Shown here: positions 24,570 to 42,174 of the stretch, piece after piece
How positions within the stretch are numbered: the stretch's first letter is position 1
How the letters are laid out: each line of letters opens with the position of its first letter
Assembly: GCA_965203415.1 (NCBI GenBank)
Contig: CBDBCS010000006.1
Coordinates: 343,789 to 407,788 of the forward strand
DNA from: Alphaproteobacteria bacterium
Lineage (GTDB): Bacteria > Pseudomonadota > Alphaproteobacteria > CBDBCS01
DNA length: 64,000 nt
Direction of reading: 5' to 3'
Made by a program: the position numbers and the translations under genes
Notes under the pieces: model-generated
The model's input: the letters and a program-made list of their open reading frames with translations, nothing else
The model's database searches: none
What the model was told of the DNA's origin: nothing

Positions 24570-27500
24570 ATGAAGCAAAAAATGATTTTGTCGGTGGCTC
24601 TGTGGCGGCAATTTTCAGCCGAAGAGCCCCGATTCGGAACGAGACCCTGCCCCTGGACGATAAGAGGGCCCCTTCTCGGAGCCCCGCTTCCTCTCGTTCT
24701 GGCGGCCTGTTCTTCGTTGGACGATGATTTTGCGGACCAAGAGTTTCCACAGGATGGCCTGTTCGTGGAATCCGATGGGAGTACGACCTACAGCCTCCCC
24801 GACGAAGTCGTTCTGGGTACCGACTCCGAGGAGGCCAGACGCACAAGTGCCTCTCCCAATGACGATGAAATTTTCGTCGTTGTCACGTTTAACCAGGACC
24901 TGGCCGGCCTGCCGCTAGACGAGATCGTCCTGATAGACGACGAAACGGAAGACGACGAGGACGAGACAACGGACACGACGCCCCAACCCCGCGGCCGCGT
25001 CACCAGTATCCAGAGCGACCCAGATAATCAACGCGTTTTTACGATCTCTCTGACCGTCGATGATGGGGCGGATGGTCTTCTGGCTCTTTTCTTGAAGGAG
25101 GGGGCTTTGGTGGAGAACAGCGATGGTTTTTTCTATCGTCTGGCGGCCGACCTGCCCCTTGGGCAGCATCGAGCCGACGGGATGGGGCCTCAGGCTCTTG
25201 GGGCGGACCCCGACGACTATCCAACGGGCGTGACCGAAGCGGTGAGCGTCTCTTCGGATGGGCCCAATGCCCGCCAAATCGTCTTCAGCCTCTTTTTCGA
25301 CGAGGACTATGAAGATTTAGACTGGGGCGACCTGGTGTTCCTGGACGCCGCAGGAAACACGCTGTCGATCGCCGAAGAGCTTGTGACGACCTCCATCGCC
25401 GACGGCGTCCTGAGCCTCGACGGCACCGAAGCCACGCCTCTGCCTCAATTTGTCGCGGTCACCGTCGAACTGGACGGGCGAGGCAGTATCAATGTCCGCC
25501 TCTCGGACGAACGGGCCGAGGAAGACGACGACGACGATGACCCCGCCACAGGCTATGGCCAAATCACCGACATTTACGGCAATGCCACGCTTTTCTCGGA
25601 CCTGACCCAAGAGGAACTAGACCGCTACCAGCTGGCGGACCCCTATTATTTTGACATTGTCTCGCCCGCCAGCCTGACAGTCGACGAAACAGGCCGAGAG
25701 GTGACCTTGGTCTTCTCGACGCCTGTAACGGCCGGTATGGTCGAGGCGGACGATTTCTCTCTTTTTGACGGCGACAGAGAACTCACCATCACCTCCCTCA
25801 CCGGGCTCACCGATACAGGGGACGAGGAGCTGGAAGAAGAGGAGCTGGAAGGAAATTTAAGCTACACCAGTTTCGTGCTCCACATCAGCGAGAGCCTGAA
25901 GGCCGACTCTGAAATAAGCCTGTCCTATGAAGGCGACATGGACAATCTCACCTACACGACGCGGCCGAGCGGCGGGCTTCAGGCGACCGAAACCTATGTT
26001 ACCAGTTTTACAAGAGACCAGGCCGAAAGAGCCCTGGGAGACCGTATCACGCTCGATCTGGTTCAACCGGGAGCCGATGCTTCGCTGGCGTTCACGGCGG
26101 GCGGAGCGATGCTCATGTTCGCCGAGGGCTCCGGCGGCGGCGGCGGCGTCCAGCTGGTCACCACCGAAACGAGCGAGGACTCTGAGACCGAGGCTGTGAC
26201 GACTCAAACGCTCCACCACGGCAGCGTGGGCGGCGCAGGCCGTGGCACGGACTCGGTTCTCACGGGCGGAGCGGGGTCTGATATTTTGTTCGCCGATGGG
26301 TCGGGCGGCGGCGGCGGCGGCGCTTCGACGACCTCCACGGACGATGATCTCAGCGCGGGCACACCGGGCGAAGGCGGAACCGTCGGCGACGGCGACGACG
26401 TCCTCCAAGGCGGCGGCGGGGTCGATATTTTAATCGGCGACGGCTTTGCGGGCTCGAGCGGCGAGGGAGCCGATGGCGGGGCCGGCGGCTTCGGCGGCGG
26501 CGGCGGCGGCGAGGCCTATCTCCGCTATGGCCCCGACCCAGACGATGAAGCGGAAACCATTGCGCTGGACGGCGGAACCGGGGGCGAAGGCGGCTTCGGC
26601 GGCGGCACCGGGGCCGGCTGGCAGACGGCCATCGACGCGGAAACCGACAGCGACGGCATGGTGACCCCGGCCACAGAGGCGATGGTGGTGTTTGCCCTCA
26701 CCCCGACCTACGGCCACCACGCCACCACCAGCATGCCCGAACGCATCGAGGCCGGCGCCGGCGTGAGTCCCGACGGGGCCACCGAAGACGACCCAAACGG
26801 CGGCGTTGTCCCCAATGACGAGGGCGACGCTGGCGCGCCGGGGGCACTCAATCTGGCTCTCGATCAGGCAAGCTTTGAGGCGTTCCTGGATCAATTGGAC
26901 CTCGACGGCAACGACGACGACGAGCGGCTGTGGGATGATTCGGCCATGCAGGCTCCCGGCCAGGGCCGAGACGTGCTGGATGGCGGGGCTGGGAATGATG
27001 TACTCCTGGGTGGGGGCGGAGCCGACCTCTTCGTTCTGGACCTGCGGACCATGGAGGACGGCGAAATCGACCGGATTCTGGACTGGGGCCGAGGCAATGA
27101 TTTGCTCCATCTCAAAGACAGAGACGGCGAAACCATCGCTTTTCCTTTTTTAAGGACGACCCGTTTCGACATAACGCGCGAGACAGGCTCAGACCGATTT
27201 GGCTCTTATTTGTCCATCGGGATCAAAGAGCTGGCAGAAGGCATGAATCCCGAAAAAAATGTCTCGCTGCGTCTTTATAGTCTCCATAATGCCGCCACGC
27301 TGACCGAGGACGATTTCACCGATGCGGCCTTTTATACGCCGTCTCTTTTTCAGCCTGTGTCGGGTACCAGTCGTCTGGTTTTTTACGACGGGTCGGGCAG
27401 TGGCGGGCGCGCTCAGGTCAGTTCTACCCGCGCCGGGAGCGGCGGTAACGGCGGCGGCGGCGGCGACGACGGCGAAGGCGACGACAGCGACCCCGACGGC

Positions 27501-30500
27501 CAGCAAGCCAGCGATTCGAGCGACATCCTCTTCGGCGACGGGTCCGGCGGCGGCGGCGGCGGCGGCGACCGGGCCGCGACTTATGGGCGCGGCGGCACGG
27601 GAGGCAGCGGCGACGACGTCCTCAACGGCAAGGGTGGCAATGATATTCTCTTCGGGGACGGGTATGGCGGCGGGAGCACGACTTCCAGCGGAAGCGGCCT
27701 GGGCGGTTTTGGCGGCGGCGGGCGCGGGCAACCGCTCACGGGAACCGCACAGTCCGAGTTCCTAGAGCGTCTCTCCGGGCTTGTCCCGTCTACCCCGGGC
27801 GAGGCGGGCGATGAAGCCGTCCATGCTTTTACGCTGACCGATGCGCTAGCTGGCACGCTCGATGACGCTTTTGAGGACCTCGGGGCCTTTTTCGAGGACA
27901 TGCTGGAGCGCATCGATTTCGATGGTATCGACGAAAAAAGCCGCGGCGATGACGCCCGAGTGTGGGGCGACGCCGACGGGATGGGAGCTCAGGCGCGAGG
28001 CGATGGCCGGGATGTCCTCCAGGGCGGGGCGGGGAGCGACTTTTTGATAGGGCTCGGCGGGTCGGATGTGTTCGTCCTCGACCTGGAAGAAAGCCAGGAC
28101 GGCGATATAGACCGCGTGCTGGACTGGGGACTGGGAACGGATTATCTCGAGATTCGAGATTTTAACGGCAATCTTCTCAATGCGCCTCTGACCTCCAATG
28201 TACAACCCGACAGCGAAGCCGAGGACGAGGACGAAGACGTCTGGACGATGCATCAACTAGAGGACGGGGTGCTCTCGATCACGCAGACGGAGGGTGCCGA
28301 CTTGTTCGGAAACTATCGGGCTCTGACGTTCCGCGTGGCCCCGGCGGCGGATAGCACAGGCGTCGAGGAAAAAATTGTTCAGACGCGGTTTTATAGGTTC
28401 CATGTAGATGCGATGATCGCGCCGACGGCCCTCACGAACGAGGACTTTCATGCCCCTGTTCTGTATAGTTCGGGCGGCGTTCTGGCGCTTTTAGACCGCT
28501 CGGGCGGCGGCGGCGGGGCCTCTTTGGATAGCAATCGAGTCGGTGGCGATGGCGGCGACGGCCAAGGCGAGGACGATGTCTATGAATCGGCTTCTGAGGG
28601 CTCCGATATTGTCTTTGCCGACGGGTCCGGCGGCGGCGGCGGCGGTATCCATGACGACAGCCGCAGTAGCACGCGCGCCGGAACAGGCGGCGAAGCCGGC
28701 AATGGCCACGATATTATCCGCACCGGGGCCGGGGACGATATTATTTTTGCCGACGGTTTCGACGGAGCCGCCGGCAATCGAGAAGATGGCGGCGCGGGCG
28801 GCTTCGGTTTTGCCGGCGGAGGGGCGGCAGGCGTCCAAGACGACGACGACAACACAGAGGGCGAAAACGGCGAGGATGGCTGGGGCCACGACCGGTTCTC
28901 TGGGAACGGGGCGGCGGCGGCGGGAACCACCCTATCCACGGGCGCCGGCGACGACGGCACCAACGGCGCGGCGGATAGTAACATTCTTTTTCCTTTGCTG
29001 GGGTCTCTGAGTCGGGCCGATTTTGAAGAGCTCTATGAGGCCATCGATAACGACGACAGCACCGACCGGACGCGCGGCGACGATGGGCGCATCACCTCCA
29101 GTCGGCTCGAATCGCTCGCCGGAGAGGGCTGGGACCGCCTGGATGCGGGCCCTGGCAATGACATTCTCATCACGGGGAATGGCGTCGACGTCGTCACCCT
29201 GGACATGCGAGAAATGGGCCACGGCGAAATCGACCGCGTCTTCGATTTCGAGGAAAGCTGGACAGATTTGAGCGATGAAGACGATGTCACGGGCGATTTA
29301 CTCTTTGTGATTGCCTCGGACGGTCGGCGCAATCTAGACCTCGACGATGTCGGCGAGGGCCTCACCCGGCGCGAATCCGTCGGCCGAGACCTTTTTGGAA
29401 GTTATTTGGAACAGACGCTCACGGATGACGTGAAAACTGTTTTTGTCCGGCTCTATACGCCGGGTTTTACGTCTGCCTCGGGCCGCGAATTAGAGCGCGA
29501 CAGCTTTCTGACACAGGATTATACCTCCGGCGGCGTCATTTTGTTCGGAGACCAGTCGGGCGGCGGCGGCGGCTATGACGACCGAGATGTCGACGAGGCG
29601 GAAGGCGGCGATGGCGGGCACGGCGGGAGCGGCCATGACCGGCTCCAGGGGACGGCGGGGTCGGATATTCTGTTCGGCGACGGGTCCGGCGGCGGCGGCG
29701 GCTCGAGCGAAAACGGCGATGACGGGACCCCTGGTCTCGCCGGGGCGGGCGACGACCGTCTATTCGGCGGAGCGGGCGACGATATTCTGTTCGGCGATGG
29801 GCTGGACGGGCTTTCCGCCGGGGTCGGCGGATTCGGGGGAGGTGCCAATGGCGTCGAAAACACCACGACGACCCTCGCCGAGGAACGCGAAGGCGGCTTC
29901 CAGGCAGCTCAGGCGGCGGCGGCCAATGGCGAAACGACCGCCGGAGACGCCCCCGGCGCCGGGAGCCATGGCGGCGATTTTGCCGTCACGCTGGATTTGG
30001 ACTATCTGGACTATCTGTCGCTCATAGAGGATATAGATTTGGATGGCACGCTCGATTTCGAGTTGTACGGCACGTCCTTCTGGCGCACGCGAGCCAGCCA
30101 CGGCACAGGCAACGACCAGCTAGATGGCGAAGCGGGCGATGATGTTCTCATTGGTCTGGGGGGCGAGGATGTGTTCGTTCTGGACTTGTCGAAAATGGCG
30201 CATAACGAGACAGACCGTATCTTGGATTGGGAGCCCACTCGAATCAATGACGACGATGAAGAGGTGCGGGTGGACCGCTTGAAACTTGTGGACTCGTCTG
30301 GCGAAGCGGTTGGAGCTCCTTTTGGGGACTCGGCGTTTACGCTGGACGGCTCGCGGGAGGGCACCGACCCCTGGGGGGCCTTTCTGGAGCTCGCGATTAC
30401 CGAAGAACAGGCGAATAGCGACTCGGCGAAGACGGTCTATGTCCGGTTCTATAACAATCACGCGCCGGCAACCGATGACATCGAGCCGATTACCGACGCA

Positions 30501-30515
30501 GATTTTACGATTTAA
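24570..30515 (+). CDS. giant (1981 aa) highly acidic Gly/Asp-rich repeat protein with RTX-like GGxGxD nonapeptides; probable exported, calcium-binding surface protein (possible lipobox LVLAAC near the N-terminus)
   Basis: Four roughly 360-415-aa modules each contain DILF(A/G)DGSGGGGGG (about 26281, 27527, 28607, 29657), then GGxGxDxLxG runs. Each also has a motif such as DVLDGGAGNDVLLGGGGADLFVLDL...EIDRILDWG. Extreme Asp/Glu/Gly content; (GGC)n microsatellites in the DNA. Confidence 0.7.
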   Translation: MKQKMILSVALWRQFSAEEPRFGTRPCPWTIRGPLLGAPLPLVLAACSSLDDDFADQEFPQDGLFVESDGSTTYSLPDEVVLGTDSEEARRTSASPNDDEIFVVVTFNQDLAGLPLDEIVLIDDETEDDEDETTDTTPQPRGRVTSIQSDPDNQRVFTISLTVDDGADGLLALFLKEGALVENSDGFFYRLAADLPLGQHRADGMGPQALGADPDDYPTGVTEAVSVSSDGPNARQIVFSLFFDEDYEDLDWGDLVFLDAAGNTLSIAEELVTTSIADGVLSLDGTEATPLPQFVAVTVELDGRGSINVRLSDERAEEDDDDDDPATGYGQITDIYGNATLFSDLTQEELDRYQLADPYYFDIVSPASLTVDETGREVTLVFSTPVTAGMVEADDFSLFDGDRELTITSLTGLTDTGDEELEEEELEGNLSYTSFVLHISESLKADSEISLSYEGDMDNLTYTTRPSGGLQATETYVTSFTRDQAERALGDRITLDLVQPGADASLAFTAGGAMLMFAEGSGGGGGVQLVTTETSEDSETEAVTTQTLHHGSVGGAGRGTDSVLTGGAGSDILFADGSGGGGGGASTTSTDDDLSAGTPGEGGTVGDGDDVLQGGGGVDILIGDGFAGSSGEGADGGAGGFGGGGGGEAYLRYGPDPDDEAETIALDGGTGGEGGFGGGTGAGWQTAIDAETDSDGMVTPATEAMVVFALTPTYGHHATTSMPERIEAGAGVSPDGATEDDPNGGVVPNDEGDAGAPGALNLALDQASFEAFLDQLDLDGNDDDERLWDDSAMQAPGQGRDVLDGGAGNDVLLGGGGADLFVLDLRTMEDGEIDRILDWGRGNDLLHLKDRDGETIAFPFLRTTRFDITRETGSDRFGSYLSIGIKELAEGMNPEKNVSLRLYSLHNAATLTEDDFTDAAFYTPSLFQPVSGTSRLVFYDGSGSGGRAQVSSTRAGSGGNGGGGGDDGEGDDSDPDGQQASDSSDILFGDGSGGGGGGGDRAATYGRGGTGGSGDDVLNGKGGNDILFGDGYGGGSTTSSGSGLGGFGGGGRGQPLTGTAQSEFLERLSGLVPSTPGEAGDEAVHAFTLTDALAGTLDDAFEDLGAFFEDMLERIDFDGIDEKSRGDDARVWGDADGMGAQARGDGRDVLQGGAGSDFLIGLGGSDVFVLDLEESQDGDIDRVLDWGLGTDYLEIRDFNGNLLNAPLTSNVQPDSEAEDEDEDVWTMHQLEDGVLSITQTEGADLFGNYRALTFRVAPAADSTGVEEKIVQTRFYRFHVDAMIAPTALTNEDFHAPVLYSSGGVLALLDRSGGGGGASLDSNRVGGDGGDGQGEDDVYESASEGSDIVFADGSGGGGGGIHDDSRSSTRAGTGGEAGNGHDIIRTGAGDDIIFADGFDGAAGNREDGGAGGFGFAGGGAAGVQDDDDNTEGENGEDGWGHDRFSGNGAAAAGTTLSTGAGDDGTNGAADSNILFPLLGSLSRADFEELYEAIDNDDSTDRTRGDDGRITSSRLESLAGEGWDRLDAGPGNDILITGNGVDVVTLDMREMGHGEIDRVFDFEESWTDLSDEDDVTGDLLFVIASDGRRNLDLDDVGEGLTRRESVGRDLFGSYLEQTLTDDVKTVFVRLYTPGFTSASGRELERDSFLTQDYTSGGVILFGDQSGGGGGYDDRDVDEAEGGDGGHGGSGHDRLQGTAGSDILFGDGSGGGGGSSENGDDGTPGLAGAGDDRLFGGAGDDILFGDGLDGLSAGVGGFGGGANGVENTTTTLAEEREGGFQAAQAAAANGETTAGDAPGAGSHGGDFAVTLDLDYLDYLSLIEDIDLDGTLDFELYGTSFWRTRASHGTGNDQLDGEAGDDVLIGLGGEDVFVLDLSKMAHNETDRILDWEPTRINDDDEEVRVDRLKLVDSSGEAVGAPFGDSAFTLDGSREGTDPWGAFLELAITEEQANSDSAKTVYVRFYNNHAPATDDIEPITDADFTI

Positions 30516-30699: not shown

Positions 30700-31885
30700 A
30701 AGAATAGATAGAATAGTTAGGGAGAATAATAGGGAGAACAGTTAGGTCAAACAGTAGGTGGAACAGTGAGGCGGAACAGTGAGGTGGAACAGCTAGGTGG
30801 AACAGTGAGGCGGAACAGTGAGGTGGAACAGCTAGGTAGAACAGTGCGGCGGAACAGTGAGACGGAACAGCTAGGCGGAACAGTGCGGCGGAACAGCTGG
30901 GTGGAACAGTGAGGCGGAACAGCTAGGTGGAACAGTGAGGCGGAACAGCTAGGTGGAACAGTGAGGCGGAACAGCTAGGTGGAACAGTGAGGCGGAACAG
31001 CTAGGTGGAACAGTGCGGCGGAACAGCTAGGTGGAACAGTAGGTAGAACAGTGAGGTAGAACAGTAGGTAGAACAGTGAGGCGGAACAGCTAGGTAGAAC
31101 AGTGAGGCGGAACAGCTAAGTGGAACAGCTAGGTGGAACAGTGAGGCGGAACAGTAGGGAGAACAGTGAGGCGGAACAGCTGGGTGGAACAGTAGGTAGA
31201 ACAGTGAGGCGGAACAGCTAGGTGAAACAGTGAGACGGAACAGCTAGGTGGAACAGTGAGACGGAACAGTGAGACGGAACAGCTAGGTGGAACAGTGAGG
31301 CGGAACAGCTAGGTGGAACAGTGAGGCGGAACAGCTAGGTGGAACAGTGAGGCGGAACAGCTAGGTGGAACAGTGAGGCGGAACAGCTAGGTGGAACAGT
31401 GAGGCGGAACAGCTAGGTGGAACAGTGAGGCGGAACAGCTAGGTGGAACCGTGAGACGGAACAGCTAGGTGGAACCGTGAGACGGAACAGCTAGGTGGAA
31501 CCGTGAGACGGAACAGCTAGGTGGAACCGTGAGACGGAACAGCTAGGTGGAACCGTGAGGCGGAACAGCTAGGTGGAACAGTGAGACGGAACAGTGAGGC
31601 GGAACAGCTAGGTGGAACAGTAGGTGGAACAGTGAGACGGAACAGCTAGGTAGAACCGTGAGGCGGAACAGCTAGGTAGAACCGTGAGGCGGAACAGCTA
31701 GGTGGAACAGTGAGGCGGAACAGCTAGGTGGAACCGTGAGGCGGAACAGCTAGGTGGAACAGTGAGGCGGAACAGCTAGGTGGAACCGTGAGACGGAACA
31801 GCTAGGTGGAACCGTGAGACGGAACAGCTGGGTGGAACCGTGAGACGGAACAGTGAGGCGGAACAGTAGGGAGAATAGATAGATT
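30700..31885. repeat. about 1.2 kb non-coding satellite: about 90 tandem 13-bp units (GGAACAGTGAGGC / GGAACAGCTAGGT alternating, i.e. about 45 x 26 bp), flanked on both sides by TAGGGAGAATAGATAGA-like sequence
   Basis: Directly visible. Every unit carries TAG/TGA so no frame is open (no ORF >=60 aa in any frame between 30712 and 31992). There are no unique spacers. Minor variants (GGAACCGTGAGAC) cluster in blocks. Confidence 0.95.
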
Positions 31886-32002: not shown

Positions 32003-32078
32003 GGGGCCGTAGCTCAGTTGGGAGAGCGCCTGTTTTGCACGCAGGAGGCCATCGGTTCAAGCCCGTTCGGTTCCACCA
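32003..32078 (+). tRNA. tRNA-Ala (anticodon TGC)
   Basis: 76 nt: GGGGCCG TA GCTC AGTTGGGA GAGC G CCTGT TTTGCAC GCAGG AGGCC ATCGG TTCAAGC CCGTT CGGTTCC A CCA. G3:U70 Ala identity pair present; encoded CCA. One T:T mismatch in the T-stem noted. Confidence 0.8.
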
Positions 32079-32130: not shown

Positions 32131-32176
32131 GGGGGCAGAGTCGCATGGGTGCGGCTCTGTCCCTCGGCTTTTTTGA
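32131..32176 (+). terminator. rho-independent terminator-like hairpin plus T-run downstream of tRNA-Ala
   Basis: GGGGGCAGAGTCGC ATGGGT GCGGCTCTGTCCC followed by GGCTTTTTTG. Confidence 0.55.
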
Positions 32177-32306
32177 GACCCGGGCTTTTTATTGCCGGAT
32201 GCTTGTTTGAGGGGACCTAGACCCAGGGGTCTAGACCCAATGCTGCTCCAATGCTGCTAGAGCGTGTCCTACGTCAGCGTGGCACTCGAGGCTGCGTTGT
32301 TCGCGT

Positions 32307-32382
32307 GGGGCCGTAGCTCAGCAGCGAGAGTGCCCGTTTTGCACGCAGGAGGCCATCGGTTCGAACCCGTTCGGTTCCACCA
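32307..32382 (+). tRNA. second, diverged tRNA-Ala(TGC)-like copy (possible pseudo-tRNA) within a roughly 270-bp tandem duplication of the tRNA locus
   Basis: 76 nt, same anticodon loop and acceptor ends as the first copy. It has a C:A mismatch in the anticodon stem and an altered D-loop (AGCAGCGA). Its upstream region lacks the TTGACT -35-like hexamer seen before copy 1. Confidence 0.5.
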
Positions 32383-32500: not shown

Positions 32501-34045
32501 CTAAACCCAACTATCGGGCTCGGCGTTTTTCCGCTCCTGGATGAAAGCGTCCAGCTTTTCCAGCGTAGAGCTCTCCATGGCAGGGGGGGTGTAGGCGGCT
32601 AGCATAGACTTCCATTTTTCGTGAGCCCGGCTCGTCATGTCTTTCGAGCCTTGAGCTTCCCACTGCTCGAACGAATCGACGTCAGCCAGAGGCGAGCGAT
32701 AAAAAGCGGTCTCGAAGTTCTGGCGTGTGTGAGCAGCCCCCAGAAAGTGGCTTCCTGGCCCGACCTCTTCGATGGCCGATAGAGCCTGACCGTTTTCCGA
32801 AAAATCGGCGCCTCCCAGGAGGCGCGCGGCCATAATGGCCTGGTCGGCGTCCATGACGAATTTCTCATAACCCACCGTGAGCCCGCCCTCGAGCCAACCC
32901 GCGGTGTGCAACACAAAATGGACGCCCGCTAGAGCCGTCGTCTGCAAAGTCGCACACGCTTCATAAGCCGCCTGAGCATCAGCAATTTTAGACGAACACA
33001 GCCCGCCCCCCGACCGAAAGGGAATGCCCAGACGGCGCGCGAGCTGGCTGGCTCCGTACAAAATCAGAGAGGACTCTGGCGTGCCAAACGTCGGAGCCCC
33101 CGACTGCATGGAAACGGTCGCCGCAAACGTCCCGTAAATCACAGGAGCTCCAGGCCGAATCAATTGCGCTAAAGCCGCCCCTGCCAGAACCTCGGCGTGG
33201 ATCTGAGACAAAGTCCCGACCACAGCGACGGGACTCATCGCCCCGGCCAAAATAAAAGGCGAGACCACCGTGCCCTGGCCGGCCTCGGCATAGACCCGCA
33301 ACGCCCCGAGCATCGTCTCGTCAAACGTCAGAGGCGAATTCGCATTGATAAGCGAAATGACGACGCAATTGCGTGCCACGAAGGCCTCGCCGAAGAGGAG
33401 CCGGCACAGAGAAACCGTGTCCTCGGCTCGTTTCGACGAGGTCACAGACCCCATAAAAGGCTTATCCGACAGCACCATATGCGCGCGCAGCATATCCAGA
33501 TGGCGTTTATTGACGGGCACGTCGGTCGGCTCGCACACGGTGCCGCCCGAGTGATGCAAGCCAGGCGACAAATAAGCCAGTTTTACGAAATTGTGAAAAT
33601 CCTCTAAGTAGGCGTAGCGGCGGCCTTTCTCCAGGCACCGGACAAAAGGTGGCCCATAGGCCGGGGCAAAAACGCTGTGCGGCCCGCCTATCGGGACCGA
33701 GCGCGCCGGATTGCGCGCATGCTGCGTGAAGGTTTTCGGAGCCCGCTCTCGGATAAGCTCGGTCAGAAAACCCGGTTCGAATCGAACCCGTGACCCTTCT
33801 ACGGTCGCCCCCGCCTGCCGATAGAGGTCTAAAGCCCAGGCTGAATCGTGGAACTCGACGCCTATTTTTTCCAGAATATAGTCGGCATTAGACTCGATGG
33901 TCGTCATTTGCGCGTCTGAGTAGGGCTCAAAGACGGGAATAGCGCGCTCTGCAAAATTGCGGAGAGGCCCCGGGGCCGATTCGGCGGCCTGGCGGGCTCG
34001 GAGGCGGGCGGCGCGCCCGCTGCTGTCAGTTCGTCTTGATGTCAT
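32501..34045 (-). CDS. trimethylamine methyltransferase (MttB) family protein (non-pyrrolysine; glycine-betaine/quaternary-amine methyltransferase-like)
   Basis: 514 aa; MttB-family architecture (..PYSDAQMTTIESNADYILEKIGVEF.. N-terminus; TIM-barrel-like core with ..GTFAATVSMQSGAPTFGTPESS..). Confidence 0.8.
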   Translation of the reverse strand: MTSRRTDSSGRAARLRARQAAESAPGPLRNFAERAIPVFEPYSDAQMTTIESNADYILEKIGVEFHDSAWALDLYRQAGATVEGSRVRFEPGFLTELIRERAPKTFTQHARNPARSVPIGGPHSVFAPAYGPPFVRCLEKGRRYAYLEDFHNFVKLAYLSPGLHHSGGTVCEPTDVPVNKRHLDMLRAHMVLSDKPFMGSVTSSKRAEDTVSLCRLLFGEAFVARNCVVISLINANSPLTFDETMLGALRVYAEAGQGTVVSPFILAGAMSPVAVVGTLSQIHAEVLAGAALAQLIRPGAPVIYGTFAATVSMQSGAPTFGTPESSLILYGASQLARRLGIPFRSGGGLCSSKIADAQAAYEACATLQTTALAGVHFVLHTAGWLEGGLTVGYEKFVMDADQAIMAARLLGGADFSENGQALSAIEEVGPGSHFLGAAHTRQNFETAFYRSPLADVDSFEQWEAQGSKDMTSRAHEKWKSMLAAYTPPAMESSTLEKLDAFIQERKNAEPDSWV

Positions 34046-34512: not shown

Positions 34513-35767
34513 GTGAGCGGCAAAAAAAACGACCGATAAAGAGATCAAACTGGAGTGCTCGTTCTGCGGGAAAGCCCAGCACGAGGTCAGCAAGCTCATT
34601 GCGGGGCCGCGGGTCTTTATCTGCGACGAGTGCGTCCAACTATGCCGAGAGATCATCCAAGAGGATGTGGCGAAAAACCTCCGGACCCAATCCGAGGACA
34701 CCCCCATCCCTTCGAGGATCAAAGCCAAGCTGGACGCCTATGTGATCGGCCAAGAGCGGGCGAAAAAGGTTCTCGCCGTCGCGATTTACAACCACTATAA
34801 GCGTATTCGAGGCCCAGTCGAATCCGATGACGTAGAGATCGCCAAATCGAATATCTTACTGGTGGGGCCGACGGGGTCGGGCAAGACGCTTCTGGCTCAA
34901 ACGCTGGCGAAGATCCAGGATGTTCCTTTCACCATTGCCGATGCGACGGCTCTGACCGAGGCGGGCTATGTCGGCGAGGATGTCGAGAATATCATTTTAC
35001 GGCTCTTGCAGGCGGCCAATTATAATGTGGACAAAGCCAAACAGGGCATCGTCTATATAGACGAGGTCGATAAAATCAGCCGTAAATCTGAAAATCCCTC
35101 TATCACTCGGGATGTCTCGGGCGAGGGCGTGCAGCAGGCTCTTCTCAAACTGATGGAGGGCACGGTTGCCTCGGTGCCGCCCCAGGGCGGGCGCAAGCAT
35201 CCGCAACAGGAGTTCCTGCAGATCGATACGAGCAATATCTTGTTCATTTGCGGCGGGGCCTTCGCCGGGCTCGAGAAAGTGATCGCCGAACGGAGTACCG
35301 AACGTAATATCGGGTTCGGAGCCAACCTCCAGGTCCCAGGCGAACAGCACGCGGACGCTCTTTTGCAAAAGCTCCAGCCCCAAGACCTTGTCCGATACGG
35401 ACTTATTCCAGAGTTTGTCGGACGCCTGCCCGTCTTTGCCGTGCTGGAGACCCTGGACCAAAAGGCTCTGATCGAGATTCTGTCTAAACCGAAAAATGCG
35501 CTGACGAAGCAGTATGCGAAGCTCTTTGGTCAGGAGGGCGTGGAGCTCGTCTTTACGCGCGGGTCGCTCGAGGCCATTGCCGCGGAAGCTCTGAAACGCA
35601 GGACCGGCGCGCGAGGCCTCCGGGCCGTCATGGAAGAACTCCTCCTGGAGACCATGTACGAGATGCCCAACGCCACCAATCTGCAGCAAGTCGTCGTCGA
35701 TGGGGCAACGGTACGGAATCGCTCGCGGCCTGTCATGACGTACGCAGGGGAAGAGCGCTCCGCCTGA
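34513..35767 (+). CDS. clpX: ATP-dependent Clp protease ATP-binding subunit ClpX; start codon region disrupted by a +1 frameshift in an A8 tract
   Basis: Zn-binding N-domain in frame ([31 protein letters not shown]), Walker A ([18 protein letters not shown]), and downstream ClpX motifs. AGGAGG RBS sits 9 nt before GTG at 34513, but that frame hits TAA at 34537. Removing one A of the A8 run (34522-34529) restores [20 protein letters not shown]. Confidence 0.85.
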
Positions 35768-35876
35768 GCCTCTGGTTGGCCTTCGCCTAGCCCTCCGGTT
35801 GTCCTGGCGGCCCCGGCGGCCTAGAGGCGGGTCGTCTTTTCGATAAAATAAGGGTATGCCTGGCGTGGAGGACGAG

Positions 35877-35897
35877 CCTCCCTCTTAAAGAGGGAGG
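35877..35897. other. perfect inverted repeat CCTCCCTCTT-AA-AGAGGGAGG between clpX and the giant gene (stem-loop; possible terminator or regulatory hairpin, no T-run)
   Basis: Directly visible palindrome. Confidence 0.4.
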
Positions 35898-35919
35898 TCG
35901 TTCGCGCCCTTGCGGTTTT

Positions 35920-38900
35920 GTGGGCGATGAAGATGAATTTCACATGACTCTTTTGTCTTTTTTCCCGGTATGGTTCCCGGGCGGTCCAAATGGAGACTCG
36001 TCGAGACGGCGTTTGTTTCTCGGCACGGGCTTTTTGGGCCTCATCGCGGCGTGCGGTGGCAGCGACGGTTCGTCGAATTCGGGCGATGCAAACGGTGATT
36101 CCCAGACACGCGCGGATGGGAGCGAGCTCTATTCGGTCACGACAAGCCGGGATAATGACGGCAATCTTTTGGTGACGCTCGATTTCAGCCTGGCGATAAG
36201 CGGCATCGAGGAATCCGATTTCGACGTGCAGCATGCTTCGATTCTCAACACCTTAGCCACGGAGGCGGGGCCGAACAATCCTCTGGTCATCACCCTGAGT
36301 CTGGACGACCCGCGCTCTGGCCCGGCTCTGCTTATACTCAAATCGGGCGAAGTTTTCTCTCTTGTTGATTCGATGACGCCGGTCGTTGTGCCGGCATCCC
36401 AGACGCTCGTCGAGCTTCCGGCGGTCACGGTCTCGGTCTCGGTTTCGGAACCGGTTCCGGCGCCGGTTCCGGCGCCGGTTTCGCCTGACACGACGCCGCC
36501 CCGTCTTGAAGCGGATACGAACGGCGACACCGTCTTGATTTCCGAAACGACCCTGAACGACGCAGAGCCTCGGACGCATATCACATTTGCCTTTGACGAA
36601 AAAACGCGTGGCTTGCAGCTGGAGGACTTCCGGCTGGAAGGCGACGGAAGTCTCACGATGAGTTCGGGCGACCAACAAATTTTCACGCTGACGCTCGTCG
36701 CTGCCGAAGGCGTAGGCGAACAAACCCTGGCGATTTATTTTACCGAGAATGCCTCTTTCACGGACCTGGCGGGCAACACCGCCGTCGAGTTTCGAGGCAT
36801 GGAACTGGCAAGTTTTCTAGCGGACCGGCTTGCCCCGCGCTTGGCAGAAGGCCAAAGCCTACCTGAGACGCTCTGGTTCGGCGATTTTGTTCTGGACGCC
36901 ACGACGGGACGCCAGAGTCTGACGTATGATTTAGCCGATGCTTTCATCGATGATTCGGGCATGACGACCCTCTTTTTAGGGGAAGAATATCAAGCCCAGG
37001 AGCGTCTCAATTTTGTAGACGCAACGCTATCCGAATCGCTTCAATTGACGCTTGAGCTGGTGGAGGACGTAACCCAGCGGCCTTCTCTGGGAGAGCAACT
37101 GGAATTCAGCGTGCTAGACACAGCCGGCAATCGACTGGCGGTGGGTACGACGGTTTTCAGGACGGGGCTCCAGTTTCGCTATGACGACACCTGGTTGTAT
37201 TACACCATAGAGACCGTTCTCGGCGACGTCGCGCCTGCGGTTTCTCATTTTACACTCGAGGGTATCGGGGGGCAGGCCAACATTCGAGAGGTCTCGGAGC
37301 CCGTGGCCGGCAGCACGCCGTATCACCAGCGTTTCACTGTAACGATCGACCCGGGCGCGCAACTTGCGGATGCGACGGTGACGCTGGTGTCCTCCGAGCC
37401 GACGATTCGACTGCCGTCTCAACCGCTTGAGGTAGACAACACGCCGCTTGCTTTCAGTTCTCTGACGGTGACCACCGCACCGGGCCTATCAGGAGGTCTA
37501 CCGGAACTGCGGGCAGCCTTTGAGACAACAACTGTCACGCTTTCTTTCACCGACGACCAAATTGCTTTCCCCAGTTTTGACCCGCTAGATTTTGCTTTCG
37601 AGGGGCGAGGGCTTCACCTCGTTTCCATTGCTTCGCCGCAGCCGGATCAGATTGCGCTGGTGCTGGAGGCGGCTCCCGGTATTTTTGCCCAGTCTGTAAC
37701 GCTCATGTTTTCGCAGAGCGTCTCCATCGAAGACGACAACCGCAATCCGTCGGAGCCCGATTTTGCAGGGCAGGAGCTGGCGCGTTTTTTTGTCTCGACG
37801 GCACCGCCCGTCCGCCTGAGTTCCATCGAGAATCAAACGCTCGATTTCAGCAGCTCGCTGAACCCCAGTTTTGCCGACATCACTTTGTCAGAATTTTTCT
37901 CTATCGACGGGGCCGCCTTGCGTTACGCGGTTTCCTCGAACGGACAGACTGTCGCGGATACGACGATTTCTGATGAGGGCGTTCTTGTTCTCACGACGCG
38001 TCCCGGCATTTCGGGATCTCAGACGGTTACCGTTGTTGCGGAGGCCGCCTCCAACAATGGAGTCGCGGCCGGCGCCATGGTCGTGGCCATGGCAACGGAT
38101 AGTTTTGTGCTCACGGCTGCCCCCCCGACGAGTGCCGGGCCGACCTTGGAGGGTGTCACCTCGTTTGGTCTGCCTCTGCTGGCCCATCGTCGAGAGGGCG
38201 GTTTGGTCCTCACCTTCAGCGAGCCGTTGAATGAATCGCTGGACGTTACGGATTTTGTGATACAGGACGCTGCGGGCGACCCTGTGCCGGACCTCGCCCT
38301 CGAGGTGGCGAGCTATGGGGCTAGCAAGACCGTGACGCTTTTTGTGCAGGACACCGCCTCGGACCCTCGGAGCGCAATTCGGGCAACCGTGCAATTTGCT
38401 TCGGACGCCAGCTTTGGCGACCGGCAGAACAATCCGTTTACGGTTACGATTACGGCTCCGGACCCGGACGACCCGTCTATGACGGTCGTTCTTACGGATC
38501 AGAACGATTCGCTCCCCACTTTTCTGATCCAGACGGACCCGCCGCCGCCTTTTCTAGAGGCGTCCCGGCGTTATTTTCCTATCCCCGATACCGTCACGGC
38601 TGGAGCGGTGCTTTTTCCCCAAAATCTGGAGACTTACTTCGAAGGAGCCACGCGTTTCTCGTTTCGGGAAAGTGTCCGAACCGGGGACGGCGGCCCTATC
38701 GGGGCTTCCATCTCGGACGCCAATGTACTCACGGTAACGGCGACGGGCGAGGAGGGCCTAGAAACGCTCCTTGTGACCGCAAACTATCCAGAGAGCTTTG
38801 ACCTCGACAATCGAACCGTTTCGTGGATTTTCTGGCGAGGGGAGGCTCTCATAGAACCGACGGCAGGCGTTTCGCTTCCGACAAATCTGGCGAATTTTGC

Positions 38901-41900
38901 AACCCGCACGATTTGGGACCTGTCTGAGTATTTCGAGCCCACTTCGGATTCGGACCCGCCTCTAGGCTTCCAGTTTTCGCGAACGGGTTTGAGCCTGGTC
39001 GAGACCGAGCTCAACGGAACGAGCCTGTCTCTGACGCCCCTCGAGGGAACGCATGGGATGGAAGTTCTGACCGTCACAGCGGTGCACGACAATGGCTGGG
39101 GCCTGACGCATGCCATCACCCTCAGTTTCGAGGCTGTGACGCTGGACCTGGAGCCCGAGACCGCCGAAGAGGGAACCGATTTTAGCTTTGACCTCAAAAC
39201 GGTTCTGACGGGCTTTGGCGTCGCAGAGACGGACCTCTTGAGTTACGAAGTTTCGGCAACGCACGACGGGGCGGCCGTAGAGGACTTCGTCACCGTATCC
39301 ACGGCCGGCGGCCGGCGCGGCATCGTGCGAACGCCGGACGGCACGATGCTGCCCGAGGTGACCGCGGCCCAGCTCTATACTTTGTCCGTCACGCTGAAGT
39401 GGGAGGCCGGCACAACGACTCTGACGCACACCGATAGTTTTGAGCTCACGGTCACCAATAGGTCTGGCGACCTCGATCTCATTGCCAGACGCGATGTGAC
39501 CGCTCTGGGTAATTTTGATCTCGACACCGAGGCCCACCGGACCCGCCGTCTCGATGTGCTAAACGAGATTTTCACCACGACTCTGGCGGCGGCTGACATC
39601 GAGTTCTCTTACCAAGTTGCCCCTCGAGGCGACCCCCGCCAAACCGTGTTCGAGCTCACAGAGCCCTTCTTGAATTTAGCGGATGCTCTAGATGGTCTAT
39701 CGGCGTCGGCTCTTTTGACCCATACCGAGTTCGACTTGATTCTGCGCGCCCGCCCGAGCAACAGTCCAGAAGTCACGACGCATTCGATCCTGCTCCAGAG
39801 TGCAGTCCACCACAGTCATGCGCAGCTGGCGGCCGAGACAACCCAAGAGTTGCCGGCGGCTCTAGGCCTCATAGGGCGCAATCCTCAAACCAGTCGCGTT
39901 CTGGAGCCGTTCTATATCCAGAGCCTGGGCGACCTGGACCGAGACGGCCTAGACGACTTCGTCGTCGCCCAAGCCACGGGAGCCACGAGTCACTCGATTG
40001 TCCGAGGCTCCACCACTTTTGGAACCCACGATACCTACGAGGCGCACGCCGCCGAGCCGCCGCCCGCTGGAACCAGTCCGCCCGCCGCCGCTGTCCTAGA
40101 GAACTTCCCTCTAGACGGGGCGCTGCAGCGAGGGTGGCGCGGGGATCTCGATCAGGACGGGTCTCCGGATTTCGGTATCGGAGACCGTTTTTTTCTAGGC
40201 ACTTCAGGCGGCGGCTTGGCTCCAGCCGAGACTTTCCCCGCTATCGGAGCGTTGGGGACGGCGGCCCAGTCTACGACAGGGCCCGCCAACGCACAGACTC
40301 CCGTCGCAGAGATTCCCGTCGTAACGAGCTCAGGAGATGTGGACCAAAATGGTCTTGTGGATTGGGTCGTGCATGCCCCTGCCTCGGACGCGCTGGTTTT
40401 CATCCAGAGCGGCGTCTCTACGGCGGCGGACGTTTTTTTCGACGTGGCTCTGGTTCGGGCGCACGCCTTTCACGCCTCCTTTCATGCGGCGACGGATTTC
40501 TTTGTGCCGGATGCGGTGGAAGACGGCCGCTTGAGCCCGGCGTCGGGACCTGCCGGGAGTTATCAAACAGCGGGGCTCTTTCTTCGAACAACAGACACGG
40601 GAGACTCGGAGCTTGTAGAGGCGGGGTTTAGTTTTTACCATGCCTCGTTTTCATCGCATCCCGGGTCGGCTTTACCGGCCGGAGACATCAATGGCGACGG
40701 TGTAGACGATGTGCTTGTCACCATCCCCGGCCGCGATGCGCCCGGAGCCGCCAACGCCGGGGCCGTGGCCGTTTTATACGGCAGCTCTGGCCTGGGCCCA
40801 GGTCTAGGGCCGGGCGTCTATTATCAGACGCACACGCCGCAGCTCGATGCCTCGGCGGAAGCGACCCCCGGCCTGGGGAGCCTCGGCTTCCGAGCCCTCA
40901 ACGAAACGCATCTGAATGGCGGCCGCCATGGCTTTATGATTCACAGTTCCGAGGCAGGCCAGCTTCTGGGTCGCCATGTCGTCCCGGTCGGAGACTTCAA
41001 TGGCGACGGGTTGGCAGACGTTCTCCTTGGGGTGCCGGGAGTAAGCGGTGAGGGCACGCATCGGCTTCTTGTTTATTTGGGAACGGCCAGTGCGTCTGCT
41101 CAGCTGGACATTGGCGAGCGAGACGCAGAAGCTTTCCAAAACAGTTTTTTTGAAATCACCTCGAGTGTCGATTCTTTCGGTCAGACGCTTGCCCCCGTTG
41201 GCGATTTTAACGGCGACGGGCTGAGCGATTTTCTGGTCGGCGGCCCAGAGGCGAGCTATCTGTTCTTCGGACAACGCGGCTCCCGAGCCGACCTCGCGGG
41301 CATGGTTTTTTCTGCCGACACGGCCGAGACAACACCTGGTGGAGCACCAACGCAAATGCTGCGCTTAGCCGGCGAGGGCCACGCCGTTCAGGGGCTTGGC
41401 GACATCAATGGCGATGGTCTCGCGGATGTGGCCTATGGGACGCAGCACGGCACGTTTCGAGTTCTCTATGGCAACACGCATTACGGCACAGAAGCGGGCG
41501 AGGGCACGCCCTCGCCTTACGCCTCTCATGCGGGAGACGACCATCGGGACGCGCCGATTCAGAGCGGCCAAACGGCCTTAAGTGGCACGGGCGACGACAC
41601 GCTCTATCTCGAGAGCACCGGGGCCTTCATGGTGGACGGCGGGGCCGGCCAAGATACGCTTGTCGTCGGGCGCGGCCTCGAATTGGACCTCACGACCCAT
41701 GGACCCGGGCCTGGGGCAGACCTGGGGGCGAGACTCGGGCGGGGCGACGTCCGAAACATAGAGACACTCGCCCTGTATGACGAATCTGAAAGCGTCGTGA
41801 AACTCGACAGAGCCGCCGTCCTGGACCTGATCGAGACGAGTCCTCTTCAAACCTTGAACGTCACCTTCGAAGGCGGCGGAGTCGAAACCATTACCGCACG

Positions 41901-42174
41901 TCTATTGCGTATTGAACGCGCCGACTCGCCGGACAATGCCGCCCCAGCGGCATCGGACCCTCTCACCGAGGTCCTGTTGCAACAGAGCCATTTTGAAGAC
42001 CCCGAAGACCACGACCGAATCTATCGAGAGGGACGCTGGTATGCTCTGAATCGATCCGATACGTCGGACGCGGAGGACACATCGGACGCGGGGGACGCGG
42101 CGAGCGGGACTCTGATGGGTGTCTGGGTCGAGGCCTCTGAAGCTTCTATCGAGGTTGAGCTAGCAGCGTTCTAG
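35920..42174 (+). CDS. giant (2084 aa) Tat-signal lipoprotein with Ig-like/beta-rich repeats, FG-GAP-like DxNGDGxxD repeats and an RTX-like C-terminal module; probable surface adhesin-like protein
   Basis: N-terminus SRRRLFLGTGFLGLIAACGG has a twin-arginine motif plus lipobox. Repeated GDFNGDGLADVLLG, GDINGDGLADVAYG and GDINGDGVDDVLVT (FG-GAP/integrin-alpha-like) occur around aa 1500-1800. The C-terminal ...LSGTGDDTLYLESTGAFMVDGGAGQDTLVVG...LDL resembles the modules of the 24570 gene. Confidence 0.7.
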   Translation: MGDEDEFHMTLLSFFPVWFPGGPNGDSSRRRLFLGTGFLGLIAACGGSDGSSNSGDANGDSQTRADGSELYSVTTSRDNDGNLLVTLDFSLAISGIEESDFDVQHASILNTLATEAGPNNPLVITLSLDDPRSGPALLILKSGEVFSLVDSMTPVVVPASQTLVELPAVTVSVSVSEPVPAPVPAPVSPDTTPPRLEADTNGDTVLISETTLNDAEPRTHITFAFDEKTRGLQLEDFRLEGDGSLTMSSGDQQIFTLTLVAAEGVGEQTLAIYFTENASFTDLAGNTAVEFRGMELASFLADRLAPRLAEGQSLPETLWFGDFVLDATTGRQSLTYDLADAFIDDSGMTTLFLGEEYQAQERLNFVDATLSESLQLTLELVEDVTQRPSLGEQLEFSVLDTAGNRLAVGTTVFRTGLQFRYDDTWLYYTIETVLGDVAPAVSHFTLEGIGGQANIREVSEPVAGSTPYHQRFTVTIDPGAQLADATVTLVSSEPTIRLPSQPLEVDNTPLAFSSLTVTTAPGLSGGLPELRAAFETTTVTLSFTDDQIAFPSFDPLDFAFEGRGLHLVSIASPQPDQIALVLEAAPGIFAQSVTLMFSQSVSIEDDNRNPSEPDFAGQELARFFVSTAPPVRLSSIENQTLDFSSSLNPSFADITLSEFFSIDGAALRYAVSSNGQTVADTTISDEGVLVLTTRPGISGSQTVTVVAEAASNNGVAAGAMVVAMATDSFVLTAAPPTSAGPTLEGVTSFGLPLLAHRREGGLVLTFSEPLNESLDVTDFVIQDAAGDPVPDLALEVASYGASKTVTLFVQDTASDPRSAIRATVQFASDASFGDRQNNPFTVTITAPDPDDPSMTVVLTDQNDSLPTFLIQTDPPPPFLEASRRYFPIPDTVTAGAVLFPQNLETYFEGATRFSFRESVRTGDGGPIGASISDANVLTVTATGEEGLETLLVTANYPESFDLDNRTVSWIFWRGEALIEPTAGVSLPTNLANFATRTIWDLSEYFEPTSDSDPPLGFQFSRTGLSLVETELNGTSLSLTPLEGTHGMEVLTVTAVHDNGWGLTHAITLSFEAVTLDLEPETAEEGTDFSFDLKTVLTGFGVAETDLLSYEVSATHDGAAVEDFVTVSTAGGRRGIVRTPDGTMLPEVTAAQLYTLSVTLKWEAGTTTLTHTDSFELTVTNRSGDLDLIARRDVTALGNFDLDTEAHRTRRLDVLNEIFTTTLAAADIEFSYQVAPRGDPRQTVFELTEPFLNLADALDGLSASALLTHTEFDLILRARPSNSPEVTTHSILLQSAVHHSHAQLAAETTQELPAALGLIGRNPQTSRVLEPFYIQSLGDLDRDGLDDFVVAQATGATSHSIVRGSTTFGTHDTYEAHAAEPPPAGTSPPAAAVLENFPLDGALQRGWRGDLDQDGSPDFGIGDRFFLGTSGGGLAPAETFPAIGALGTAAQSTTGPANAQTPVAEIPVVTSSGDVDQNGLVDWVVHAPASDALVFIQSGVSTAADVFFDVALVRAHAFHASFHAATDFFVPDAVEDGRLSPASGPAGSYQTAGLFLRTTDTGDSELVEAGFSFYHASFSSHPGSALPAGDINGDGVDDVLVTIPGRDAPGAANAGAVAVLYGSSGLGPGLGPGVYYQTHTPQLDASAEATPGLGSLGFRALNETHLNGGRHGFMIHSSEAGQLLGRHVVPVGDFNGDGLADVLLGVPGVSGEGTHRLLVYLGTASASAQLDIGERDAEAFQNSFFEITSSVDSFGQTLAPVGDFNGDGLSDFLVGGPEASYLFFGQRGSRADLAGMVFSADTAETTPGGAPTQMLRLAGEGHAVQGLGDINGDGLADVAYGTQHGTFRVLYGNTHYGTEAGEGTPSPYASHAGDDHRDAPIQSGQTALSGTGDDTLYLESTGAFMVDGGAGQDTLVVGRGLELDLTTHGPGPGADLGARLGRGDVRNIETLALYDESESVVKLDRAAVLDLIETSPLQTLNVTFEGGGVETITARLLRIERADSPDNAAPAASDPLTEVLLQQSHFEDPEDHDRIYREGRWYALNRSDTSDAEDTSDAGDAASGTLMGVWVEASEASIEVELAAF

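Follow-up and report, generated by a model that had tools for sequence, protein, structure and literature searches.

Here, we analyze a stretch of DNA from an uncultured alphaproteobacterium (NCBI assembly GCA_965203415.1, contig CBDBCS010000006.1, positions 343,789 to 407,788; 64,000 nucleotides, hereafter the window), with particular attention to the block between ribD and dsbA. This block contains, in order, a giant open reading frame (ORF) that we call p1 (24570..30515, + strand), a satellite, two tRNA-Ala(UGC) genes, mttB, clpX, and a second giant ORF, p2 (35920/35944..42174, + strand). With about 2000 codons each, the two ORFs are too long to have arisen by chance, and both proteins are on record in public collections. 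On balance, we favor the view that the block is core chromosome that was rearranged in this lineage and carries two independent genes for giant, acidic, Ca2+-binding envelope lipoproteins. Homology supports a role for both products as Ca2+-binding cell-envelope or adhesin-type proteins, p1 being related to repeats-in-toxin (RTX) proteins, AlgE and CyaA, and p2 to integrin alpha; the same general reading was reached in an initial annotation made from the letters of the DNA. We also suggest, more tentatively, that p1 and its scattered homologues form an undescribed class of RTX proteins, namely Sec-exported lipoproteins with a lipobox, a stalk, and one to four units that each combine a Gly-rich beta-roll with an R-module-like cap.

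Architecture of p1

The product of p1 has 1981 amino acids, a pI of 4.05 and a net charge of -296. It contains 17% Gly, 13% Asp and 0.7% Lys, along with 12 poly-G runs and 10 nonapeptides of the form GGxGxDxUx (counted by regular expression). Tandem Gly/Asp-rich nonapeptides, acidic pI and scarcity of cysteine are features of RTX exoproteins, and p1 has all of them; only two of its 1981 residues are cysteines, one being the lipobox Cys described below. HemolysinCabind is the sole Pfam family matched (E 5.8e-18, 64.9 bits against a cut-off of 23) and covers six stretches. These data bear out the earlier description of p1 as an extremely acidic protein with four poly-Gly/RTX modules. The pI is about 4.1 for both p1 and p2 versus 5–11 for their neighbors in the window, which means that the acidity is particular to these two proteins and rules out a halophile-type acidic proteome as its cause.

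At its N-terminus, p1 has a signal (24570..24710, +) which, as read from the translation, consists of a long n-region, the h-region GPLLGAPLPLVLAA, and the lipobox L-A-A-C with Cys47. Next comes an acidic region (aa 48–513; 24711..26108, +) that has no Pfam match and probably forms beta-rich stalk domains. Part of this region (aa ~88–206) is homologous to aa 99–213 of another protein, P0018 (phmmer E 1e-6, small database). The rest of p1 consists of four modules, delimited by self-comparison, alignment and hidden Markov model (HMM) envelopes: module 1 (aa 514–933; 26109..27368, +), module 2 (aa 935–1303; 27372..28478, +), module 3 (aa 1304–1655; 28479..29534, +) and module 4 (aa 1656–1981 plus the stop codon; 29535..30515, +), the last of which was also modeled with AlphaFold2. 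The modules are 326–420 aa long and show local identities of 33–58%. At the DNA level, the copies are only 60–90% alike, indicating that the duplications are old.

Each module opens with a Gly-rich beta-roll (FGDGSGGGGG), which a variable linker connects to canonical RTX nonapeptides, and closes with a cap similar to those of AlgE R-modules and CyaA block V. In the Gly-rich part, the order of motifs is x-hydrophobic-x-(D/E)xSGGGGG, SDILF(G/A)DGSGGGGG, GxDxLxGGxGxDILFGDGFxG and GGFGGGG; after the variable acidic linker, it is ExIDxDG, GxGxDxLDGGxGNDVLxGxGGxDVFVLD, (E/D)IDR(I/V)LDW, FGxYL and VxVRLY. No model in Pfam or NCBIfam covers the Gly-rich part, and none of the NCBIfam models for C-terminal targets of type I secretion systems (T1SS) matches p1. 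The AlphaFold2 model of module 4, based on 13 module sequences, has a mean predicted local distance difference test score (pLDDT) of 73.3 and a predicted template modeling score (pTM) of 0.77. Residues 1–100 are modeled confidently as short beta-roll-type strands and residues 190–305 as a beta-roll plus beta-sandwich, with low confidence for the linker at 102–185. Foldseek comparison of this model to the PDB gave matches that are weak but consistent: CyaA RTX blocks V and IV–V, AlgE6 R-modules, C-domains of the serralysin family, and PML lipase. As judged from sequence and model, the C-terminal part of the module is an R-module/RTX-block-like unit, to which the Gly-rich N-terminal part is an addition.

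The closest counterparts of this unit are the R-modules of AlgE1–7, the mannuronan C5-epimerases of Azotobacter vinelandii (PDB 2ML1/2ML2/2ML3, 2AGM). These ~150-aa units combine RTX nonapeptides with a C-terminal cap and occur in one to seven tandem copies per protein, comparable to the tandem modules of p1. A profile of the 13 modules matches the R-modules of AlgE6 and AlgE4 (2ML3, 2ML2, 2ML1, 2AGM) with E values of 1.4e-9 to 4.6e-7, R3 of AlgE6 scoring 1.4e-9, and the AlgE motif GGAGxDxLxGGxGADxFxF...DRILDF..DKL aligns to module positions ~195–290. AlgE R-modules are also among the best fold matches (Foldseek probability 0.87, TM-score low), the resemblance being confined to the C-terminal part of the module. 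In the epimerases, R-modules follow catalytic A-modules, and export occurs through a T1SS without an N-terminal signal. By contrast, p1 has no A-module, carries a lipobox, and has a ~100-aa Gly-rich subdomain (FGDGSGGGGG twice, GGFGGGG) and an acidic linker before each RTX part.

Two other systems are also informative. CyaA of Bordetella pertussis (PDB 5CVW, 6SUS) resembles p1 in having several RTX blocks (I–V) per chain. The best TM-score on the target for the p1 module (0.54) is obtained with block V, and in sequence only the nonapeptides match (E about 1e-3 to 1e-5). Giant T1SS-exported RTX adhesins of the LapA/MpIBP type have the general layout proposed for p1, with an N-terminal outer-membrane anchor, a long Ig-like stalk, and distal C-terminal Ca2+-binding RTX modules. 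Such adhesins have no N-terminal signal peptide; their N-terminus forms a plug in TolC by which they are retained, and a T1SS domain of VCA0849 type lies at the other end. p1 differs from them in its lipobox and its cap (DRILDW...VRLY). The Gly-rich subdomain of p1 is also found just before the T1SS-type C-terminus of such adhesins of 3000–4400 aa (P0021, P0096, P0141). The RTX blocks of CyaA are Ca2+-dependent beta-rolls that rely on a C-terminal capping structure for folding (PMC9120197). CyaA, however, is a toxin exported by a T1SS, emerging and folding C-terminus first, whereas a Sec-exported p1 would emerge N-terminus first.

Association of the complete module with a lipoprotein signal

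We defined a lipobox by the PROSITE-like pattern [LVI][ASTVI][GAS]C, placed after an uncharged h-region and with positive charge in the n-region. Of 36 proteins in the window, only p1 (..IRGPLLGAPLPLVLAAC) and p2 (..RRRLFLGTGFLGLIAAC) match. A gene for lipoprotein processing, lspA (lipoprotein signal peptidase II; 13314..13823, +), lies elsewhere in the window, outside the block. Its translated ORF shows LspA motifs, and it adjoins ileS. In the only available relative, a metagenome (ENA ERZ25068803) with ~88% nucleotide identity, the region is collinear and the orthologous ORF is PF01252 Peptidase_A8.

A HMMER search of 1.84 billion representatives found 2758 proteins that match the module profile, mostly through nonapeptides only; only a few cover the module whole. 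In one group (P0021, P0022, P0026, P0027, P0096, P0141, P0159), the Gly-rich part and RTX repeats are followed by a VCA0849-like ending, DTFVW..GD.G..DTIxDF...GDKLDLS.LL. These proteins are very large, have no N-terminal signal, and look like classical T1SS adhesins. A second group contains the complete module with the DRILDW...VRLY cap, and consists of p1 itself (P0001), P0018, P0020, P0028 and P0039. All five of these complete-module proteins have an N-terminal lipobox, versus 0/128 of the other scored profile matches (Fisher p 3.5e-9, computed on a rounded split of 5/5 versus 0/125). Some of the signals are textbook examples for signal peptidase II (SPII), such as MYRLVILSMLLLLGSSC and ...FFILNSAFVAC. 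A scan of JGI metagenomes from deep-ocean samples identified single-module proteins, three of which (L095, L097, L099) begin with MGFRRKLRWLILVLMPLFLFTGC or a similar lipoprotein signal. P0018, encoded in a metagenome-assembled genome labeled Alphaproteobacteria bacterium, has at least three modules plus part of the p1 N-terminal region and is, on the sequence evidence, the nearest architectural homologue of p1. The co-occurrence of complete module and lipobox points to a Sec/lipoprotein-routed class of RTX proteins, distinct from classical T1SS substrates.

Architecture of p2

p2 encodes 2084 aa when read mechanically from GTG 35920 and 2076 aa from the deposited start, ATG 35944 (P0007), with which the start of p2 in the relative aligns. 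The signal (35944..36054, +), SSRRRLFLGTGFLGLIAA-C with Cys37, combines an RRxFL motif with a lipobox. Its sequence is MTLLSFFPVWFPGGPNGDSSRRRLFLGTGFLGLIAA-C, and the relative retains GRRFLLGTGFLGLVAAC (read from L001 DNA) despite a diverged n-region. Substrates of twin-arginine translocation (Tat) carry the motif (S/T)RRxFLK ahead of an h-region of mild hydrophobicity. The TatP pattern RR.[FGAVML][LITMVF] matches the twin-arginine stretch of the window (RRRLFLG) as well as that of the relative (GRRFLLG). Conservation of the RR motif makes p2 a possible lipoprotein of the Tat type, as had been proposed. The lipoprotein part of that proposal finds a basis in the lipobox; NCBIfam returned no TAT-signal model for p2 at E values up to 10, so it is the motif that carries the Tat assignment.

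The N-terminal ~1270 aa beyond the signal (36055..39870, +) constitute an Ig-like stalk region, with one Big_12 match (E 1.6e-6, aa 204–289 in the 2084-aa numbering) and no detectable internal sequence repeats. Then follows an FG-GAP region of seven blades (39871..41523, +), delimited by Pfam matches, motif positions, and alignment to integrin alpha. The matches to FG-GAP (E 2.4e-21, 75.6 bits against a cut-off of 22.1) and FG-GAP_3 (E 2.4e-14, 54.1 bits), together with seven DxxxDGxxD Ca2+ loops, confirm the FG-GAP-like repeats reported initially. Like p2, integrin alpha-type propellers have seven repeats with DxxxDGxxD loops; p2 aligns to blades 4–7 of integrin alpha-V, alpha-4 and alpha-IIb (E 3e-6), which are the blades that bind Ca2+. 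The domain searches that the initial annotation had proposed thus found HemolysinCabind in p1, and FG-GAP, FG-GAP_3 and Big_12 in p2.

The C-terminal ~215-aa domain of p2 (41524..42174, +) contains one RTX-like nonapeptide pair, ends in ...IEVELAAF, and has no family match in Pfam or NCBIfam. It was previously thought to resemble a p1 module, an idea we reject: what the two proteins share is an RTX-like motif of ~23 residues (BLASTP E 0.065; 2.1 bits with the module HMM), amounting to one DGGAGxDTL nonapeptide pair. In p2, unlike in other bacterial FG-GAP surface proteins, the propeller is accompanied by a lipoprotein signal with an RR motif, an Ig-like stalk of ~1270 aa, and a C-terminal domain of its own. 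Overall, its predicted architecture is that of a ligand-binding, adhesin-type protein. Among 5.8 billion clusters, a single full-length homologue was found (P0008, 80% identity); other homologues share the propeller region only. With its orthologue in the relative, p2 shares ~80% identity overall but 88% across the propeller and C-terminal domain (the C-terminal 787 aa), compared to 88–90% for flanking proteins. Better conservation of the C-terminal 787 aa implies that the stalk of p2 evolves faster than the head.

Export and location of p1 and p2

RTX repeats are viewed as a hallmark of export by type I secretion (PMC3034196, PMC6891781), and Ca2+-driven folding from C- to N-terminus is part of the accepted secretion ratchet. 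RTX proteins are indeed defined by T1SS export and by Ca2+-driven folding nucleated by a C-terminal cap (PMC3034196, PMC6891781, PMC9120197); without Ca2+ the repeats are disordered, and they fold outside the cell, again from the cap (PMC9120197, PMC6891781). We found nothing relevant in the literature that pairs RTX repeats with a lipobox or lipoprotein signal. RTX exoproteins have no N-terminal signal peptide and are exported by means of a C-terminal signal that stays uncleaved, and p1 has an h-region plus lipobox. RTX exoproteins also depend on a dedicated ABC transporter and membrane fusion protein (MFP), along with TolC, the genes of which are usually linked. As noted in the initial annotation, T1SS genes (ABC/MFP/TolC) are missing near p1, and there are none among the annotated ORFs of the whole 64-kb window; nor are there any within 10 kb of P0018, P0020 or P0028, the genes of which sit among housekeeping genes (contexts L002, L103, L104). 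Given its lipoprotein signal, p1 probably bypasses the dedicated RTX export machine. That N-terminal signals take the place of a T1SS was also suggested earlier, and for p1 the distribution of the lipobox among module proteins now provides comparative support.

We envision that p1 is made with an SPII-type lipoprotein signal and would cross the inner membrane unfolded via Sec, a route well suited to RTX sequences because the repeats are disordered at cytoplasmic Ca2+ levels. It would then be lipidated at Cys47, cleaved by LspA, and sorted to the outer membrane, leaving the N-terminus tethered. Each of the four capped modules could fold on binding Ca2+ once fully emerged. The product would be an N-terminally lipid-anchored stalk with four Ca2+-stiffened heads, which may act like a giant RTX adhesin or an S-layer-type protein, with the lipid anchor and Sec replacing the TolC plug and the T1SS. 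In this scheme, p2 would be a second lipid-anchored Ig-like stalk, presenting a seven-bladed integrin-alpha-like propeller and its private C-terminal domain.

If p1 and its homologues do form a class of Sec-exported RTX lipoproteins, Ca2+ would trigger the folding of beta-rolls from N- to C-terminus, each capped module in turn, to build a lipid-anchored, Ca2+-dependent surface layer or adhesin in uncultured marine bacteria of several phyla. Such a family, with complete RTX-type modules behind lipoprotein signals, would place the same Ca2+ switch on the Sec/lipoprotein route. It would also offer a simple test system, a single 330-aa module with or without its cap, in which the two directions of folding could be compared, and would aid the annotation of very large orphan surface proteins in uncultured marine bacteria.

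Several observations weigh against this picture. The lipobox Cys usually lies within ~15–35 residues of the start (PROSITE PS51257 rule); Cys47 of p1 and Cys37 of p2 both fall beyond this range, counted from start codons that are predicted, and the n-region of p1 is unusually long. P0018 likewise has a long n-region, with its Cys at residue 64. T1SS genes could lie elsewhere, the window being 64 kb of a 1.79-Mb contig. Moreover, the positive control P0021, a giant T1SS-type RTX protein, also has no T1SS gene within 10 kb; linkage is therefore not obligatory, and missing T1SS neighbors carry little weight. P0035 and P0133 apparently have the cap region without a lipobox, although they may be N-terminally incomplete fragments, and two single-module metagenome proteins (L093, L096) lack a lipobox as well. 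The fold matches of the p1 module are weak (best Foldseek E 2e-3, TM 0.13–0.27 on the query). For p2, the model of the propeller and C-terminal domain, built from a 2-sequence alignment, is of very low confidence (pLDDT 26.7). Finally, a 200-kDa lipoprotein would have to pass through the outer membrane.

We give appreciable weight to an alternative, while considering it improbable overall: p1 and p2 may be lipoproteins that face the periplasm, serving as outer-membrane-tethered Ca2+-binding scaffolds or Ca2+ buffers. Lol-sorted lipoproteins of Proteobacteria mostly face the periplasm, and we detected no surface-export system (Slam, type II or type IX secretion) in the window and no C-terminal sorting domain. 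On the other hand, with their ~2000 aa, Ig-like stalks, RTX heads and integrin-like propeller, the two proteins are built like extracellular adhesins, homologous modules lie at the distal end of giant extracellular adhesins, and the periplasm would be narrow for proteins of such length.

Somewhat less probable, in our estimation, is that p1 is an ordinary T1SS substrate, with an unlinked T1SS, a secretion signal in module 4, and a lipobox that reflects either a chance match or an over-extended ORF start. RTX nonapeptides and R-module-like caps as in AlgE and CyaA would be expected of such a substrate, and the cap motif D(V/T)FV..D....DRILDW...D.L is similar to the C-terminal T1SS domains of VCA0849 type in other module-bearing giants. 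The atypically long n-region of p1 and the absence of T1SS genes within 10 kb of P0021 fit this possibility too. Chance is, however, hard to square with a lipobox in five of five complete-module proteins and in none of 128 others, to which the three metagenome proteins add, or with module-protein signals as typical of SPII as MYRLVILSMLLLLGSSC and MGFRRKLRWLILVLMPLFLFTGC. The lack of any match to NCBIfam T1SS C-terminal target models and of T1SS genes in the 64 kb also speaks against an ordinary substrate. We continue to favor Sec-dependent export of p1 as a lipoprotein.

Genomic context of the block

The initial annotation regarded the block as an accessory-looking, rearranged or variable region. 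Its base composition is normal: besides overall GC, the G+C content at third codon positions (GC3) is 0.71 for p1 and 0.66 for p2, compared to 0.56–0.72 for neighbors. No integrase or transposase ORF was seen among the ORFs, and there are no significant repeats flanking the block. One 25-nt inverted pair (24233/34193) brackets p1 through mttB and was considered as an inversion footprint; we rejected it, since its exact seed is 12 nt and ~10 such seeds are expected by chance in 19 kb. The relative is collinear over window positions 6641–24021 and 32872–45948. The second of these stretches holds mttB-clpX-p2-dsbA-smc, in which the nucleotide divergence of p2 equals that of the flanks. As the contigs of the relative end inside ribD and inside mttB, this comparison covers neither p1 nor the satellite and tRNAs.

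Normal composition, lack of mobility genes, and the location of clpX in the block lead us to conclude that the ribD–dsbA region is core but rearranged and not a mobile island, with the p1-satellite-tRNA part lying outside the coverage of the relative. "Rearranged" is a fair description with respect to clpX, whereas "accessory" and "variable" find no support in the data, including, for the part of the block that it covers, the synteny comparison that the initial annotation recommended. Deviant composition, mobility genes and flanking repeats, by which genomic islands are recognized, are not seen here, and the right half of the block is present in the relative. That the interval is a horizontally acquired, tRNA-associated accessory island is very unlikely: the tandemly duplicated tRNA genes, the large satellite, the detachment of clpX from clpP, the orphan status of p1 at the sequence level, and the position of the p1-satellite-tRNA interval outside the contigs of the relative could all be cited in its favor, but normal GC and GC3, the absence of integrase or transposase ORFs and of convincing flanking repeats, the presence of clpX within the interval, and the collinearity of mttB-clpX-p2-dsbA-smc in the ~88% relative, with p2 diverging at the rate of the flanks, all argue the other way.

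In the 30 kb that are otherwise collinear, the only gene-size indel is an extra ~1.5 kb in the relative (L083 15005–16554) between the M24 peptidase gene and nrdR, which is absent at window positions ~22050–22310. It contains a 357-aa ORF with no Pfam match.

clpX

clpX (34513..35767, +) contains a +1-nt frameshift in an A8 run (34522–34529), four codons after the GTG at 34513, and the NCBIfam ClpX model matches over positions 53–413 only. The Zn-finger domain shares the reading frame of the AAA+ body and not that of the start, such that the start is cut off from the Zn-finger N-domain, a feature missed in the initial annotation. The relative has A7 at this run and an intact 417-aa ClpX (P0005). 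An assembly error in the homopolymer, a real frameshift, or slippage could each account for the A8 run. Split genes in the contigs of the relative (ileS, smc, mttB) suggest that these assemblies are indel-prone. The apparent truncation of clpX is a homopolymer frameshift, from which no biology should be drawn without read-level support.

Neither clpP nor lon is found anywhere in the 64-kb window, an arrangement that had been called atypical for proteobacteria. We compared 80 other proteobacterial clpX loci of many orders, among the matches listed. In this panel, clpP lies within 10 kb of clpX at 75 of 80 loci, in line with that claim, whereas a lon motif is missing at ~30 of 80, including those of Rhodobacteraceae and several Sphingomonadales, making the absence of lon less unusual than supposed. 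In none of the 80 is mttB, dsbA, smc or ribD found beside clpX. The best ClpX identity among the matches listed is 61–67%, which is compatible with a divergent lineage.

Satellite, tRNA-Ala genes and mttB

The satellite (30736..31867, +) is non-coding, with 43.8 copies of a 26-bp period (Tandem Repeats Finder score 1522). It is built of two 13-bp half-units, GGAACAG(C)TAGGTG and GGAACAGTGAGGC. The + strand is 72% purine, with 76 GGAAC motifs and degenerate, AGAATAG-type edges. The unit gives 32 matches at up to 3 mismatches, versus 0 expected; it matches no Rfam family, and no copies occur elsewhere in the window. Situated between the p1 stop codon and the tRNA-Ala promoter, the satellite belongs to neither giant protein. 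It is only an idea that it serves as a protein- or RNA-binding array, for example a sponge of GGA motifs.

The two tRNA-Ala(UGC) genes, already recognized as duplicates, were identified with ARAGORN at 32003..32078 (copy A, +; Rfam 60.2 bits; strong intrinsic terminator at 32131–32164) and 32307..32382 (copy B, +; Rfam 50.1 bits; terminator at 32432–32465). They lie within a tandem duplication of ~304 bp. The duplicated unit extends over the upstream region and a terminator, and its copies are 82% identical overall and 92% identical over a 103-nt core. Copy B retains the G3:U70 identity pair, has an altered D-loop (AGCAGCGA, G19 to C) and an anticodon-stem mismatch, and may be a decaying duplicate. 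On the 3′ side of each terminator (32213–32240, 32477–32508) are short palindromic motifs of the type GGTCTAGACC / CCGTCTAGACGG. The same type of palindrome is found in the relative (L001 3005–3065), inside the region that encodes the n-region of the p2 signal. These palindromes could be a small element resembling repetitive extragenic palindromic (REP) sequences.

The assignment of mttB (32501..34045, −; 514 aa) is sound, the Pfam MTTB match having an E value of 8e-209. The NCBIfam trimeth_pyl model gives 264 bits, under its cut-off of 525, and the ORF has no in-frame stop. With no in-frame UAG, it encodes a non-pyrrolysine member of the MttB methyltransferase superfamily. A weak match to the pyrrolysine insertion element PYLIS_3 inside mttB (32902–32995, −; 29.7 bits versus a gathering score of 38) probably reflects sequence ancestry.

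Flanking genes

To the left of the block lies a housekeeping stretch with the gene order gcvT, hemY-like, hemD, hemC, hldE, ileS, lspA and an aminotransferase gene, continuing with MarR, a response regulator, folE, an M24 peptidase gene and nrdR-ribD, up to p1. To the right, p2 is followed by dsbA-like, smc, atpHAGD, femAB-like, algH, dsbD, degT and ispD. Genes up to 9363 are all on the − strand; from ileS (9589) onward, they are mostly on the + strand. The cumulative GC skew has a minimum near 13–15 kb of the window. A replication origin near ~14 kb was considered and found unsupported, with 8 unclustered DnaA-box-like sites versus 4.7 expected. Near the right end of the window, a 313-codon ORF (orf313, 61593–62534) encodes a very acidic protein (pI 4.74, 0.3% Lys, no Pfam match) that may be a further secreted or envelope protein.

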